A DNA stretch of 64,000 bases from Waterburya sp. (GCA_965217895.1 CBDCJV010000002.1:992001-1056000); one strand, 5' to 3'; counted from the first letter of the stretch, positions 6,811 to 15,303 are shown. Numbers and translations: made by a program. The notes: generated from the letters alone by a model not told the origin.

Positions 6811-8103
6811 TTATGGCGTTTGATCTTCTGTATCAGCTTGAGCGGTTGGATATGCCCCTGCTTTAACTGCTACATTCATCTGTTGCCCGTTACGTTTTAA
6901 ATCGAGCTGTAGGTTTTTACCCACTTGGCTGCTTTCCACTGATTGTTGCAAAGCGTCAGCATCCTTAACTGCTTGTCCGTTAACTTGTTGGATGACATCT
7001 CCAGCCCTCAAGCCAGCTTTAGCCGCAGGAGAGTCTGGTACTACTTTCATGACCAAAACGCCGCTATCGTCATAAACACTTAAACCACTATTGGGATTAG
7101 AGTTTATTTCTTGTTTAACTTCTGGGGTTAGAGTGACCATTTGGATACCTAAGAAAGGATGTTCTACTTTTCCAGAAGCAATTAACTGGTCGGAAATTTT
7201 TTGAGCAGTATCGATGGGAATAGCAAAACCAAGTCCCTGAGCTCCTTGAATAATAGCGGTATTAATGCCTACCACTTCGCCATTTTGATTTAGCAAAGGA
7301 CCGCCAGAATTGCCAGGATTGATCGCAGCATCGGTTTGAATAAAATTGACCCGTTTATCGGGAATACCTACTTGTCCTGAAGAGCGACCTGTCGCACTGA
7401 TGATGCCTTCAGTGACGGTATTATCTAATCCTAAAGGATTACCAATGGCGATCGCCGTTTCTCCTGGCTGTAGAGTCTTACTGTTACCAATTTTTACTAC
7501 AGGTAGATTTTGGGCATCAACTTTTACTACTGCTACATCGGTAACGGGATCTCTGCCCATTACCTTCCCTGGAAAAGTACGACCATCTTTTAAAGTGACG
7601 GTGACTTTTTCTGACCCATCGACAACATGAGCATTAGTCAAAATCGTGCCGTCTTTATTAATAATAAAACCAGATCCTAATCCCCTCTGAACTTCTTTAT
7701 CGGGCATTTGGGGCATTTGCGAACCAAAAAAGTTACGGAAGAAAGGGTCGTTAAACATTTGGGCATTAGGATTCTTGACCGTACGAGAAGAATCAATTCG
7801 CACTACAGCCGGTCCTACTTGTTGGGCGATCCTCGCAATCGGATTGTATACTGAACCATTAACTGCTGGCGAGGGAGTAGTAATCTGATTATTAGCTTGG
7901 GTAGATGGATTAGATTCAGCCGCTGCGGTCGTCCCTGAAACCACACTATTGTGGGCAAATAAATAGTCTCCTCCCACACCAAGTCCTGCACCCAACAAAA
8001 CCAAAGCAAAGGCAGCGACAGATTTTTGGGGTACACGGCGATGATGAGATGAAGAACCAATGACTACATTATTATTAGAATCATATTTAGGATAGGTTGG
8101 CAT
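6811..8103 (-). CDS. HhoA/HhoB/HtrA-family serine protease with PDZ domain
   Basis: GSGFII, TNAHVV, IQTDAAINPGNSGGPL and a C-terminal PDZ domain. Confidence 0.95.
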   Translation of the reverse strand: MPTYPKYDSNNNVVIGSSSHHRRVPQKSVAAFALVLLGAGLGVGGDYLFAHNSVVSGTTAAAESNPSTQANNQITTPSPAVNGSVYNPIARIAQQVGPAVVRIDSSRTVKNPNAQMFNDPFFRNFFGSQMPQMPDKEVQRGLGSGFIINKDGTILTNAHVVDGSEKVTVTLKDGRTFPGKVMGRDPVTDVAVVKVDAQNLPVVKIGNSKTLQPGETAIAIGNPLGLDNTVTEGIISATGRSSGQVGIPDKRVNFIQTDAAINPGNSGGPLLNQNGEVVGINTAIIQGAQGLGFAIPIDTAQKISDQLIASGKVEHPFLGIQMVTLTPEVKQEINSNPNSGLSVYDDSGVLVMKVVPDSPAAKAGLRAGDVIQQVNGQAVKDADALQQSVESSQVGKNLQLDLKRNGQQMNVAVKAGAYPTAQADTEDQTP

Positions 8104-8786: not shown

Positions 8787-9383
8787 ATGTCCACAACTAA
8801 AAAACAGCCATCTCGCCAAGCACAACCAGAAAACTTTTGGCTTGAAAGTATTAAAACTCTTGGTCTTAGCCTATTTCTGGCATTTGGGATTCGGACTTTT
8901 ATAGCCGAAGCTCGTTATATTCCTTCAGGCTCGATGTTACCGACATTGCAAATAAATGACCGCCTGATCATTGATAAGATCAGCTATGACTTTAGCAATC
9001 CTAAAAGAGGAGATATTGTAGTTTTTAATCCCACCAAAACTTTAGAACAAGAAAATTTTCATGAGGCTTTTATAAAAAGAGTCATCGGTTTACCTGGAGA
9101 CAAAGTTGAGGTCAAAAACGGCAAGGTGTATGTCAATAATCTTCCTATCAAAGAAAATTACCTTGAAGCACGACCTGATTATCAATGGGGACCAGTAGTC
9201 GTTCCTGCTAACTCCTATTTGGTTCTGGGGGATAATCGCAACGATAGCTATGACAGTCATTACTGGGGTTTTGTCCCCCGTCAAAACATTATCGGTAAGG
9301 CGATGTTTCGTTTTTGGCCTTTTAATCGTATTGGCGATATTGAGCGTCCTGTTTATGTTTTGAAAAACACAGATAACAAATAA
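8787..9383 (+). CDS. lepB: Signal peptidase I
   Basis: [21 protein letters not shown] and [15 protein letters not shown] motifs. Confidence 0.95.
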
Positions 9384-9575: not shown

Positions 9576-10094
9576 TATTTCAGCCGAGAGTACAGCTCAA
9601 ATACTGGTTTTAGTTAGTTTGTACTTTGTCATCAAATCAAAATCTGATTGACAGACCGTAAATTGACACTGATTTTGGTCTTTGAGCTTCAAAAAGCACA
9701 TTATTGTTTACTGTTTCTAAAGCTTTAGTTAAATTATTCTCTGCGATCGCTATAAAAAACTGTTCGACAGGATTATACATAACTAAATTTATATTTTATA
9801 GCCAAATTAGCAGGTCATGTAATGTCAGGAAAAACTAGTCTAAGTAAGAGCGATCGCATCCCTTCTTTTGACTCAGCCTCAATTTACCTCTAACCAAATA
9901 TTTACAAGTGAGGTTTCTGCTTCAAACTTTGTGTAGGAGTACAGAGAATTTAGCTAGGTATTAATTCTGTTTAAGCACTTACCGATCTGAGATTAAATAA
10001 AATTTGAATATTGAAGCCTCAATGTCAAAACTAAGTTGGCTGAATTTTGTACGTTTTTACTTGGTCATTTGCTTTCGCACTCAAGTAAGCTGCC

Positions 10095-10607
10095 TTAATT
10101 CTTTTCATTGACTCTATCTTGGCAGCTTTGGCTTTTGTATCTTGGTGTTGTGATTTCATAACCTAGATTTTCCTCACCTAAGTTTTCTGTAATACTAAAT
10201 TGTAACTCAGTAAGATACATTTTGGCTAGCCTACCGTAGAATTTTTTCAATTTGAAGTTTTCGGCAGTAAATAAATAGGCTTCGGCATTGCTGTTTAAGT
10301 AGTGAAACTCTACCACATCTCTAACAATCTTACCCAAAAATCTCATTTCGACAATTGAAAGGAATTTCTTGGGTGGCTTATAATAATCTCCTGATTCAAA
10401 ATTAGCTTGCAAATCAAACTTAACAATAAAACTATTTGGTTTATAAGTTATTCCCAAATCGCTAGACTTTTCTTCTATCGTTAAGGAATCGTACAGATCG
10501 TTAACAGGGTTGAATAACATCAAGTATTCTACCTTAAACACCTCAAATCTAATGATTTGACCGCTTATATTTTCATAATTAAAGTCTTCTAGTTGCCAAC
10601 TGCTCAA
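10095..10607 (-). CDS. Hypothetical protein in the RiPP operon, possibly with a GNAT-like fold
   Basis: 170-aa ORF 46 bp downstream of the ATP-grasp gene, with an AAGGAG RBS. C-terminal part reads AYLFTAENFKLKKFYGRL. Confidence 0.7.
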   Translation of the reverse strand: MSSWQLEDFNYENISGQIIRFEVFKVEYLMLFNPVNDLYDSLTIEEKSSDLGITYKPNSFIVKFDLQANFESGDYYKPPKKFLSIVEMRFLGKIVRDVVEFHYLNSNAEAYLFTAENFKLKKFYGRLAKMYLTELQFSITENLGEENLGYEITTPRYKSQSCQDRVNEKN

Positions 10608-10653
10608 TTAATCAATTCTCCTTTTTATTGATTAGTGGGCAACGTAGCTCTGC

Positions 10654-11568
10654 TTATGTTGTTAAAAAATTTATAACAGCTTCAAATAAACCATTATTTC
10701 CTGATAAATCAAGCCATGCCCATTGTCCATTGGGATTTACTTCAAGAAACGTGGTATTTTGACAGTTTTTATCTTTTGTCATTAAATCAAGTCTTCCAAA
10801 TCTTAAACCTAAATCACGCATGAAATAATCGATATTTGTTGAAAGCTCAACGGGAAGTTCTACTTTTTCCCAACTACTATCCACAAGCGGAGTTCCAATT
10901 GCCTGTCTCCAATCCAAACCATTTAAAAGATTACGGTCAAGTACAAACCCATATTGTTGCCCATCTAAATAAACAACAGTTAAGTCGTAATCATTATCAA
11001 CCTTCTCCTGAATAAACCATGTCCAACCATCGTCAAGTTCTTCAGGGTTAACTGCACTTGTATAAATAACCTTTGCAGGTGTGCCAGTACCAGTAATAGG
11101 TTTCCCAGTAACACTTTTAATAATCCAGTTTTTACTTTTCCAATTTTTGCTACTAGGTTGTGATGTAAATGCCCAGGGTGAAACCTGCAAATACCTACTC
11201 GCTACTCGAAGTTGATAGAACTTATCAATCGTAGTATTGTAGTGTGGATCTATGGGTATCTTGCAAGGGTTTTCTCTGCGAACCCATGAGATAATTGATT
11301 GAACAGCGTTCTTAAATTCCTGGAAGCAATACCAAACTTCACCTGGTTCAGTAGGAACTTCAAAAACAGGTTTTCTCCAAATTATATTGTCTAGTGTTGT
11401 GTCGCTAATTTCTCGACCAAATTTATCTGCAATCCAGAAGCCAGAGTCGTGAATTTCAATATCGTATTCTTGCCAACGTTCCCAATTTACACGAAGAACA
11501 TTATTGGAAAGCCTTTCACAAATTAAATCACTTGTTACATCTCCACTAGAGGTAATAAGCAGGTGCAT
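10654..11568 (-). CDS. RiPP-modifying ATP-grasp ligase (MvdC/MvdD-like graspetide synthetase)
   Basis: LLITSSGDVTSD start, then IIWRKP, DKFYQL, IIKSV, FIQEKV, DWRQ, FGRLDLM and FLEVNPNGQWAWL. Confidence 0.9.
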   Translation of the reverse strand: MHLLITSSGDVTSDLICERLSNNVLRVNWERWQEYDIEIHDSGFWIADKFGREISDTTLDNIIWRKPVFEVPTEPGEVWYCFQEFKNAVQSIISWVRRENPCKIPIDPHYNTTIDKFYQLRVASRYLQVSPWAFTSQPSSKNWKSKNWIIKSVTGKPITGTGTPAKVIYTSAVNPEELDDGWTWFIQEKVDNDYDLTVVYLDGQQYGFVLDRNLLNGLDWRQAIGTPLVDSSWEKVELPVELSTNIDYFMRDLGLRFGRLDLMTKDKNCQNTTFLEVNPNGQWAWLDLSGNNGLFEAVINFLTT

Positions 11569-11586
11569 AAGAACTTTTTAGTAATA

Positions 11587-11635
11587 GTGAGACGACACTC
11601 AATAATAGTCAAAAGTATAAAAGGTGTCATCTCAC
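11587..11635 (-). promoter_or_regulatory. Intergenic stem-loop between the precursor and ligase genes
   Basis: On the mRNA strand GUGAGAUGACAC pairs with GUGUCGUCUCAC (12 bp, one U-G wobble). Confidence 0.6.
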
Positions 11636-11681
11636 AAACGTCTTGATTTTTTAAATTGAGTAATAAGAATTACTCTTCACA

Positions 11682-11879
11682 TTAATCAGCATCGCTATCA
11701 TATGGCTTACCGCTGCCATCGAAAGTCTGAGTGCTTCTTGACATTTCCAATCCATGAGTATTGGCATAGTCTTTGCTGACACCATACTGTAATTTAGAGT
11801 CGTACTTTGGTAATGCCGAGATATCGAATGAAGGAGGAGTCTTAGCAAATACAATTGGGGATTGTTTTTGTTGGTTCAT
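11682..11879 (-). CDS. Putative graspetide precursor peptide (65 aa)
   Basis: Directly upstream of the ligase. Leader carries PIVFA...PKYDSKLQ; the C-terminal core SRSTQTFDGSGKPYDSDAD has S/T/K donors and terminal DxDxD acceptors. Confidence 0.85.
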   Translation of the reverse strand: MNQQKQSPIVFAKTPPSFDISALPKYDSKLQYGVSKDYANTHGLEMSRSTQTFDGSGKPYDSDAD

Positions 11880-12020
11880 TTGAGTTTTTACTTAAAAATT
11901 AACCACTTCATAATATATTTAAAACTATGAATAGTCCTCTGAGTTTCCACGGATTCTTGAAGGGAAAATTTTAGAACCTAATTTTAAAATAAGTAAATAA
12001 GTATTTACTGCCAAACAAAA

Positions 12021-12275
12021 TTATTTACAGTTTTGTAGTTCTAAATGCCCTCTATTAGTTAGTTGGCATCCACAGTAAAACGTCCTTGGTTCAATACCAT
12101 CAGGATAAGGAGTAGCTTGTATATAGTCCTCATTTTTAAGTTGTTCAATACTATCTCTAACAACATATTCATTTAAACCAGTGCTTTCTATTATGCTATG
12201 GCAATCAGATTGTTCATTACCAATAGCTTTAAGTATTTGACACTGTTGATTTGTTATCTGCATATTCAACTCCAA
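12021..12275 (-). CDS. Small winged-helix-like protein
   Basis: QILKAI...IIESTGLNEYVVRDSIEQLKNEDYI...LTNRG pattern. Confidence 0.55.
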   Translation of the reverse strand: MELNMQITNQQCQILKAIGNEQSDCHSIIESTGLNEYVVRDSIEQLKNEDYIQATPYPDGIEPRTFYCGCQLTNRGHLELQNCK

Positions 12276-12392
12276 ACTTTTAGTTTTCTATCTTAGTGTT
12301 CCCCCTATGATTATTTTTCTTACTAATCTTTAGAATTGTGGCGATCGCCTTATCTCAATTAGAATACTTATATTCCTCCTCCTTGCAAATAA

Positions 12393-13818: not shown

Positions 13819-15303
13819 TCAGTTAAGCAAAATTTCTCCATAAACATCAACATTATCCATAAAAGAGTTATCAGTATCAGTAGCAAAATTATTACTAAAT
13901 TTAGGTAATGATTTTAAAGAAGCAACTACAGCAATGCGATCGCTATTTGCCTGTTGTGCTAAAGCTGGAGTAATCATAAAAATAGCACCGCCTTTTCCTT
14001 GACCTGGATTTATCCCGTTGCCAGCGATCGCCTTATTATTTATAAAGGTAGTCCGAGATAAAATTAATTGACCAGAACGAATAAAAATAGCACCACCTAA
14101 ACCAGCACCACTACCGCTATAACCAACTCCACCATTGCTACCACCAAAGAGACTTTTTCCTCCTTGACCTGAGTTGCCAGCTATTTTTCCAAAACCGCCG
14201 TTACCGCCACTTCCTCCTCCTGCGCCAAAACCGCCGTTTCCACCGTTGCCACCATCACCGCCATTTCCTTCTGAGATAAAACTGCCTCCGTTACCGCCAT
14301 TGCCTGCATTGCCAAAACCGCCAAAACCTCCCCCTCCACCAAAGATTACTGTCCCGATGCCACCTCGATCATCAATTAAGCCAAAACTACCAAATATTCC
14401 TGTTCCACCGTTACCGCCATCACCGCCATTACCGCCGTTTCCGCCTTCGCTACCACCGTTACCGCCATTGCCACCATTACCCGCGTTACCAAAGCCGCCA
14501 AAGCCGCCACCACCACCAAAAACAATACTGCCAATGCCATTTACTCCAATCCCGTTAACTCCTGCTACAGCACCTCGATTAATGTCATATCTATTACTGT
14601 TGCTATCTATTTCAATCTCTCTGGCTTTTAAATCAATATTGGCTAAATTGTTAAGGCTAATACCATTAATTTCGGATGTAGCTCCACGATTAACCTTAAA
14701 ATGGTGGTTATTTTCAATAATGCGACTGTTTACAGGGTATTGCTTGAGTTGTTGCTCAATTAATCTTTTTCCATCTCCCCCAATTGCCCGATTACCATTG
14801 AATGTCACCTCACTAAGAATTACCATTCCCTTATCGATAAATAATCCGCCTCCCATTCCTGCGGATGCACCAGCACCATTATGACCAGCTTCTCCTTGAG
14901 CTAGACCATTACTAATAGTCAGCTTGCTGATACTTATTTCTCCTTGTTCGATATAAAAAATTCGATGAAGATTGTTACCGTTAATCACATCGTTACCATC
15001 ACCGATGATTGCTAAATTGCCGCGAATTTTGGGTAAAGGAGAATTTAGAATAATCTTGCCGCTAACTTGACTTAAATCGATCGCATTATCATCGGGATAC
15101 TGATTGGCTAAAGCGATCGCCGATCTCAACGAACCCGAACCTCGATCGTCAGTAGTAGTAACCATAATTCGAGTTGGAATTAAGTCTATCTCTACCTCTG
15201 CTGCTATTGCTGGAGTAATACCTAATCCAATCCAGAGCAAAATTGATAACCAAAATAGTCTTAATATATTTACCGAACTCAATAAATTAGTTACAATATT
15301 CAT
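13819..15303 (-). CDS. Secreted glycine-rich protein
   Basis: Signal peptide, VTTTDDRGSGSLRSAI motif, GNGG repeats and GGAIF motifs. Confidence 0.8.
   Translation of the reverse strand: MNIVTNLLSSVNILRLFWLSILLWIGLGITPAIAAEVEIDLIPTRIMVTTTDDRGSGSLRSAIALANQYPDDNAIDLSQVSGKIILNSPLPKIRGNLAIIGDGNDVINGNNLHRIFYIEQGEISISKLTISNGLAQGEAGHNGAGASAGMGGGLFIDKGMVILSEVTFNGNRAIGGDGKRLIEQQLKQYPVNSRIIENNHHFKVNRGATSEINGISLNNLANIDLKAREIEIDSNSNRYDINRGAVAGVNGIGVNGIGSIVFGGGGGFGGFGNAGNGGNGGNGGSEGGNGGNGGDGGNGGTGIFGSFGLIDDRGGIGTVIFGGGGGFGGFGNAGNGGNGGSFISEGNGGDGGNGGNGGFGAGGGSGGNGGFGKIAGNSGQGGKSLFGGSNGGVGYSGSGAGLGGAIFIRSGQLILSRTTFINNKAIAGNGINPGQGKGGAIFMITPALAQQANSDRIAVVASLKSLPKFSNNFATDTDNSFMDNVDVYGEILLN

Follow-up and report, generated by a model that had tools for sequence, protein, structure and literature searches.

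The solved enzymes closest in fold to the ligase described here are the microviridin ligases MdnB, MdnC, AMdnB, and CdnC (group 1; PDB 5ig8, 5ig9, 7m4s, and 7mgv), which it resembles with TM scores of ∼0.7 to 0.77 at 18 to 23% identity. It shares with them the Lys/Lys/Gln/Asp/Glu-x-Asn site and the DWR loop, and in the microviridin ligases the leader docks on the grasp domain, as it does in our complex model. In contrast to the microviridin systems, however, the window (the whole 64,000-nucleotide stretch of Waterburya sp. DNA analyzed here) has one ligase rather than two and neither PFFARFL nor TxKxPSD. Its enzyme is also shorter, with Thr in place of the ELR arginine and Arg in place of the GAxD alanine, and scores far below the cutoffs of the microviridin models TIGR04184 (52.5 versus 475) and TIGR04185 (77.5 versus 425).

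One ligase preceded by a short precursor gene, the arrangement found in the window, is known from PruB (prunipeptin type) and from the actinobacterial ligases of TIGR04187 (GRASP_SAV_5884), although PruB carries DIR and YGALD and its core differs from that of the window peptide. The graspimiditides (group 13: fuscimiditide, amycolimiditide, and albusimiditide) have a Thr-Asp stem-loop with nested esters, as we predict for the window product, and the fuscimiditide loop PDGQKP resembles FDGSGKP of the window. Unlike in the graspimiditides, no PIMT-like methyltransferase was found in the window ORF list or among the ligase neighbors scanned (66 of 108 nonredundant ones), Asp54-Gly occurs in only 2 of 23 cores, the loop has eight residues, and the host is not actinobacterial; an aspartimide/PIMT route was rejected on the first two of these grounds.

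When precursors alone are compared, the closest look-alike in the accessible part of the Carter 2026 table is the group 8 Legionella core TTKQTFDTHGNWD...D...D, which has QTFDxxG ahead of three spaced Asp residues; its leader, however, is of the double-glycine type, its loop is one residue shorter, and it lacks the Pro. Cyanobacterial group 43 precursors, with YDPETQ leaders, are also among the nearest look-alikes there, and YD..Q-like leader text occurs in both group 13 and group 43 rows. No member of the four precursor subfamilies described below appeared in the accessible supplementary tables of PMC13097080, which cover groups 1 to 43 and part of the ungrouped rows, or of PMC8939145; in the PMC8939145 supplement, the PFFARFL precursor was found 80 times as a search control. 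The core was not found in the accessible portions of two large published tables, in line with the original suggestion of a possibly uncharacterized group, but T/R subclades with other cores, or an ungrouped entry, could lie inside published graspetide sets. A literature text search on the clade motifs gave no relevant paper among the 20 of 314 matches listed. Accessible parts of bioRxiv 2021.05.19.444834, bioRxiv 2023.06.21.545981, and PMC11626197 were included in the comparison.

The window ligase falls in the MdnB/C-PsnB-PruB lineage and lies beside a conserved precursor, while the defining features of microviridins, TIGR04187, and graspimiditides are lacking. We class the system with the graspetides on lineage and gene pairing; the side-chain ester or amide crosslinks that define the class are predicted for its product. 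Judged from its sequence, it would behave as a hairpin graspetide system with one enzyme. With 43 groups described, novel cores are nothing unusual among graspetides, and the most distinctive feature here is an arginine swap in the ligase. Understanding of how graspetide synthetases choose and phosphorylate the acceptor carboxylate is still incomplete, and a single Arg, reported to be conserved across 12 groups, is the basis of the current model. The clade described here, which naturally has Thr for that Arg, and Arg elsewhere, challenges the stated invariant in a directly testable way.

Gene layout and the ligase clade

The locus contains three minus-strand ORFs of 65, 304, and 170 aa, all present and co-oriented as originally predicted. 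The 65-aa ORF (11682..11879) encodes the precursor peptide, with a leader of residues ∼1 to 46 and a core of residues ∼47 to 65, and its homologues lie upstream of homologous ligases. The 304-aa ORF (10654..11568) encodes an ATP-grasp ligase with a graspetide-synthetase fold, as judged by fold, profile, and residue comparisons; FLEVNPNGQWAWL, which had been given as its C terminus, in fact stops at residue 286 of 304. Upstream of the precursor lies an 84-aa HTH-like ORF (12021..12275, minus strand) with weak HTH-type matches. This gene, a 42-aa ORF overlapping the 170-aa gene, a stem-loop in the precursor-ligase spacer, and the arginine relocation were not part of the original prediction. The flanking genes are consistent with a cyanobacterial host, as is the presence of 5,798 HIP1 octamers on the main contig. 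A promoter and terminator scan of the locus gave 14 promoter-like sites, compared with 10 ± 3 expected, and 0 terminators, an uninformative result.

The AlphaFold2 model of the ligase reached a pLDDT of 94.9. Foldseek placed RimK (5e-9) behind AMdnB, MdnC, PruB, CdnC, MdnB, and PsnB (E = 1e-17 to 1e-12), and a profile of the ligase clade searched against the PDB gave only five matches at E ≤ 0.001, all of them graspetide ligases. A housekeeping ligase of the RimK/GshB type was rejected on this ranking and on the lack of any RimK/GSH-S Pfam match, in agreement with the earlier assignment of the enzyme as graspetide-type; Pfam searches of the ligase and its aligned homologues gave no match of any kind (0 of 75). 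Scoring against TIGR ATP-grasp models returned graspetide models, all far below their curated cutoffs, with TIGR04187 as the best match (89.8 versus 350) and TIGR04192 at 58.9 versus 230. The absence of a Pfam match would explain why the clade is apparently missing from surveys of >20,000 graspetides.

Homologue searches yielded 110 matches, of which 87 lay above a clear score gap and carried no precomputed Pfam domains, and a representative library contained 72 matches at E ≤ 1e-30 and 222 at 1e-10. A metagenome scan confirmed 307 stretches; the best 80 of these 307 were analyzed, and they had been fetched by the pattern NGQWAW[LM]D, so that positions 197 and 259 (see below) played no part in their selection. 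The clade is of considerable size, with an unnamed Atlas cluster of 583 members in which Verrucomicrobiota is the commonest phylum. It is rare in the host phylum: in 400 sampled genomes, the best other match reached 1.6e-45 (1e-129 for the window ligase), and all 51 ligases from 29 of the loci in these genomes were canonical. The window ligase is the sole clade member in its own genome, and no other intact clade-level match was found in 38 congeners; a contig scan with a single ligase protein recovered only a remnant (L001), and plasmid and phage searches returned only distant canonical-type ligases.

Ligases with Thr or Ser at position 197 and Arg at position 259 (T/R rows) made up 134 of 143 newly listed 50%-identity representatives. 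In a tree of 93 rows, rooted on an MdnB-type row, they were monophyletic on a long stem (53/53, support of 0.93) and branched among graspetide-type ligases; this tree omits RimK and Ddl rows and those with <230 matched columns, and representatives and loci were subsampled for it. The ligase belongs to an apparently undescribed, Pfam-invisible clade of graspetide-type ligases.

Active site and the position of an arginine

The ligase retains K116, K151, Q187, D219-W-R221, D261, E276, and N278. Both D219 and R221 are kept in 75 of 75 aligned clade members and R65 in 74 of 75; by its position, R65 would be the Arg72 equivalent conserved in graspetides. Two further sites depart from the solved enzymes. 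Where the five aligned solved ligases have Arg in an E/D-[LIV]-R motif (R217 in MdnC), the clade has Thr197 (codon at 10978-10980, minus strand; Thr in 74 and Ser in 1 of 75 members), and their G-A-x-D is replaced by G-R-L-D, with R259 (codon at 10792-10794) in the motif FGRLD. Of 87 close homologues examined, 86 could be scored, and every one of them combined T/S197 with R259; the same was true of all 79 scored metagenome ligases (from 80 examined) and of 134 among the 138 representatives scored (from 143 examined). All 85 other rows (23 + 4 + 7 + 51) combined R197 with Ala, Cys, or Ser at 259, the ligases of all 7 viral loci were of the R type, and not a single scored row had Arg at both positions or at neither. 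Because the T/R rows are monophyletic, however, the swap arose only once in evolution, and this perfect pattern does not amount to many independent observations.

In PsnB, Arg213 binds the acceptor, its mutation abolishes activity, and it is conserved across groups 1 to 12, according to the accessible portion of the report (bioRxiv 10.1101/2021.03.09.434688). It lies 20 residues before the DFR loop, and T197 lies 22 residues before DWR; from this similar distance we infer that T197 occupies the equivalent site, so that the Arg conserved across 12 groups would be replaced by Thr or Ser in 75 of 75 clade members. This Arg is a conserved feature of the mechanism and does not define the graspetide class.

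A similar motif layout is found in E. coli DdlB, with T189 in EFTVA, R255-x-D257, and E270-x-N272 corresponding to T197, R259-x-D261, and E276-x-N278. Arg255 of DdlB binds the γ-phosphate and forms or lines the oxyanion pocket (PMC5717164, accessible part). The likeness is limited to this layout: there is no significant overall similarity, hhalign of the clade against DdlB gave no alignment (probability of 0.05), and the substrates of DdlB are small molecules. The host's own Ddl carries EVEC and ARVD. The strands bearing the two Arg positions would be neighbors in the ATP-grasp sheet. The likeliest reading of these sequence comparisons is a functional relocation of the Arg from the 197 site to 259, in which Arg259 of FGRLD most likely takes the acceptor-Arg role by analogy to Arg255 of GRID in D-Ala-D-Ala ligase. 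On balance, we favor the joint reading of an undescribed clade with a relocated Arg and ordinary ester chemistry.

Precursor pairing, leader, and core

The leader text PIVFA and PKYDSKLQ and the core SRSTQTFDGSGKPYDSDAD (11685..11741, minus strand) are present as had been predicted, and neither PFFARFL nor TxKYPSD occurs in the peptide; a motif scan of all six genome frames returned neither. With a profile of homologous precursors built without the window peptide, the window ORF was the sole match among 73,822 six-frame genome segments (E = 1.7e-13).

The conserved peptide expected beside homologous ligases was indeed found. An ORF with ≥2 Asp among its 14 C-terminal residues and ≥2 Ser/Thr before them, ending 10 to 320 nt before the ligase, was present at 66 of 68 evaluable metagenome loci, compared with 13 of 123 other long-ORF starts, and such peptides were seen on inspection at the two failing loci as well. 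The 68 loci are those remaining from 80 after 12 with <200 nt upstream were left out, and they are partly redundant, so that the counts overstate independence. Four precursor subfamilies could be distinguished: QTFDxxGxPxD...D (the window type), QTSSR...DDNN, MTPNDIAT...DD.N.W, and ...VDDWR. In all four, hydroxyl residues precede the Asp residues.

Two motifs stand out in the leader. The first, SPIVFA (11844..11861, minus strand; family pattern [TS][PA]xx-hydrophobic), matched as a loose pattern in 66 of 67 collected precursors, a count without a background control. The second, PKYDSKLQY (11784..11810, minus strand; PxY[DN]xxxQ), recurs in the majority of 23 distinct precursors of the QTFD type and contacts the ligase in a modeled complex, which supports YDxxxQ as a real leader element. 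The precursor-ligase complex model scored 0.76, whereas the highest of three controls reached 0.01; the mark for this score is reached by 116 of 157 solved pairs and 2 of 215 mismatched pairs, and the pass may reflect likeness to solved leader-ligase complexes. Model runs shared ≥59% of contacts, with a partner pLDDT of ≥63. In the model, leader residues 5 to 17 contact ligase residues 150 to 184, and residues 28 to 36 contact the N-domain, including the conserved D14 and the invariant R26, while the core has no confident placement.

The core was analyzed in 23 distinct QTFD-type sequences (28 rows before deduplication), in which Q51, T52, G57, P59, and D61 were fixed by the selection pattern and are not evidence. 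Among the unselected columns, S/T49 was present in 21 cores, D65 in 20, S/T46 in 17, T50 in 13, D63 in 11, K58 in 8, and S/T47 in 6. Of the alternating hydroxyl donors originally proposed, positions 49, 50, and 52 (and 46 in the long forms) are conserved, whereas an alternation of S47 with S49 is not supported. Lys58 was rejected as a conserved amide donor on its low count. T50 was present in 11 of 11 cores with D63 but in only 2 of 12 without it, a correlation confounded by kinship, since the 12 cores without D63 form one branch in which S/T46 and D68 occur in 12 of 12.

These column counts, together with the kinship-confounded co-occurrence of T50 and D63, suggest a nested hairpin, in which T52-D61 and S/T49-D65 would be common, with T50-D63 added in short cores such as that of the window and T46-D68 in long ones. 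For the window peptide, with S49, T50, and T52 as predicted donors and D65, D63, and D61 as predicted acceptors, the product is likely a nested Thr/Ser-Asp ester hairpin with the linkages T52-D61, T50-D63, and S49-D65, and up to three nested esters are plausible. The S49-D65 linkage departs from the equal-spacing rule seen in graspimiditides, which would predict only T52-D61 and T50-D63. A compact single enzyme acting on cores of 15 to 20 residues is attractive for making multicyclic peptides.

Several related loci show variations on this theme. In the branch with L006, L009, and L010, a Cys is conserved in the cores (as HC.TT) and four Asp residues stand at their ends, with which a thioester or a fourth ring is possible. 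In a sister subfamily (L011-L013 and L015-L023), the 91- to 98-aa precursors upstream of the ligase have a signal-peptide-like hydrophobic stretch ending in AxA, followed by YD/N..Q and the QTSSR...DDNN core; the general secretory pathway is a possible means of export for these precursors, which is unusual for graspetides. Rumen-type (L043, L047, and L055-L080) and gut-type (L033-L040 and L049) loci encode 41- to 50-aa precursors (MTPNDIAT...DD.N.W[DG] and ...VDDWR) with hypervariable cores beside near-identical ligases. ABC exporters without a peptidase domain match flank both of these subfamilies, and Ser/Thr kinase genes often follow the rumen-type loci on the opposite strand.

Proposed pathway, competing explanations, and locus history

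We propose, with a probability of about 0.78, that the locus is a minimal two-gene graspetide (omega-ester RiPP) system of an undescribed clade, with a nested hairpin product and Arg259 as the relocated Arg. A stem-loop (11587..11635, minus strand) lies between precursor and ligase, with a smaller one at 11658-11675 (minus strand) in the same spacer. The spacer folds at −25.7 kcal/mol (z = −3.1), and z was ≤ −2 in 43 of 57 distinct homologous spacers; owing to the stem-loop, the precursor would probably be overproduced relative to the ligase. In the model, the precursor docks via SPIVFA on the grasp domain and via YDxxxQY on the N-terminal domain. Following established graspetide chemistry, the ligase would phosphorylate the Asp side chains of the core at the expense of ATP, and the resulting acyl phosphates would be attacked by Thr and Ser hydroxyls of the core, with Thr197 in place of the canonical acceptor-binding Arg and Arg259 most likely assuming its role. 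Closure of T52-D61 as the inner ring, T50-D63, and probably S49-D65 would release two to three molecules of water.

Host enzymes would have to remove the leader and export the product. No dedicated protease or exporter was found beside the QTFD-type loci scanned. The original prediction of no adjacent protease, exporter, or PIMT holds for PIMTs and dedicated proteases among the scanned neighbors. For proteases in general it needs qualifying, since a signal peptidase I gene (8787-9383) and an HtrA-like ORF identified from its motifs (6811-8103) lie within 1 to 4 kb; both types are absent from the 66 scanned neighbors of homologous ligases. Purely by analogy, the likeliest biological role would be that of a protease inhibitor or conflict peptide.

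The same peptide and enzyme might instead perform a different reaction, in which an external amine or amino acid, or else a backbone nitrogen, intercepts the acyl phosphate of the core Asp in place of a Thr/Ser hydroxyl. The T/R layout does match that of amide-forming D-Ala-D-Ala ligases, and the Arg needed for PsnB macrocyclization is missing from the clade, but the overall fold, the DWR loop, and R65 are of the graspetide type, the precursors keep hydroxyl donors N-terminal to Asp, with T50/D63 co-occurrence, and no amine-supplying gene recurs among the 66 scanned neighbors, which makes this reading improbable. A rather improbable extension is that the clade as a whole forms a mechanistically separate peptide-modifying ATP-grasp branch, which has exchanged the graspetide Arg for one of the D-Ala-D-Ala-ligase type and thereby carries out a reaction unknown for the class, such as amine capture of the core aspartyl phosphate. 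Its substrates would be four or more unrelated families of cores, invisible to genome mining that starts from Pfam. That the 170-aa protein completes a three-gene pathway, either by acylating the released core like MdnD or as an obligatory partner protein, is suggested by its co-oriented gene 46 nt downstream of the ligase, by its modeled GNAT-like fold, by the acetyltransferase encoded in microviridin clusters, and by the existence of partner-dependent graspetides (accessible part of PMC13097080). We consider it very improbable: the gene has no homologue at any other ligase locus, homology with the relative's remnant ends at the ligase stop codon, and its plasmid homologues, on the three plasmids examined, come with their own overlapping small ORF, while no gene within 3 kb is annotated as ATP-grasp. 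The 170-aa gene, originally predicted to be the third cluster member, was rejected on this evidence, and the graspetide cluster comprises two genes, precursor and ligase, rather than three.

It is also conceivable that the family is real but that this copy is a recently acquired, silent, or decaying cassette without a product in this host. In the close relative L001, the precursor and half of the ligase are gone, ligase GC3 is low (0.26 versus 0.33 in flanking genes), and the whole block falls into a single 2.5-kb interval without HIP1 sites, whereas ∼94% of the gaps between such sites in the genome are shorter. Against this, both ORFs are intact, every clade-invariant residue checked is present, the spacer retains its stem-loop, and the leader shows the conserved motifs; we hold this reading to be unlikely. 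The QTFD-type locus may nevertheless be dispensable or silent in this host, since a close relative retains only a remnant, 400 phylum genomes held no other clade-level match, and none of the 38 congeners has an intact copy.

In that remnant (L001:1280-1972), at a different chromosomal site from the window locus, a deletion of ∼0.95 kb at a 7-nt microhomology joined the HTH gene to the 3′ half of the ligase, and the precursor was lost; homology covers just these two segments, up to the ligase stop codon. It is possible that the 84-aa HTH-like protein is a regulator traveling with the pair in this genus. The block at 9850-12348 lies between two consecutive HIP1 sites (GCGATCGC), and in all three cases examined the homology with congeners picks up again no more than 7 nt from the right-hand site. 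A HIP1-associated insertion of the block is possible; a repeat search at the locus revealed no convincing IS ends.

The 170-aa gene (10095..10607, minus strand; TTG start, with an AAGGAG site upstream) and the basic 42-aa ORF overlapping it (10031..10159, minus strand) are a separate mobile two-gene module, an island neighbor of the graspetide pair. Across 119 loci, the 170-aa protein matched only the window's own copies; it was not found in 400 order genomes or in viral contigs, and 60 family genomes gave nothing beyond two weak, stop-interrupted matches. Six close homologues share 70 to 79% identity with it, five of them ending 11 residues earlier, and distant ones occur on 10 gammaproteobacterial plasmids. 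On the three plasmids examined (Vibrio, Serratia, and Alteromonas; L134, L135, and L136), a small basic ORF overlaps the large gene: the annotated 42-aa ORF of the Vibrio plasmid is 63% identical to that of the window (E = 1e-12), and those of Alteromonas and Serratia are similarly placed. The model of the 170-aa protein (pLDDT of 69.5, one good model of five) resembles GNAT folds, with a best Z of 8.6 (rmsd of 4.2, 124 residues aligned) that barely exceeds the common range, as many GNATs score at Z of 6 to 8. Pfam, NCBIfam, and PADLOC gave no match for the window proteins of this module that were tested; the module looks like an unnamed toxin-antitoxin or defense pair. The large Alteromonas gene has an extra N-terminal domain starting with a GAGLS motif, which we take to be Sir2-like.

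Elsewhere in the window, a 494-aa Gly-rich protein with a signal-like N terminus is encoded at 13819-15303 (minus strand), flanked by two amidohydrolase genes in what looks like a purine-salvage region.
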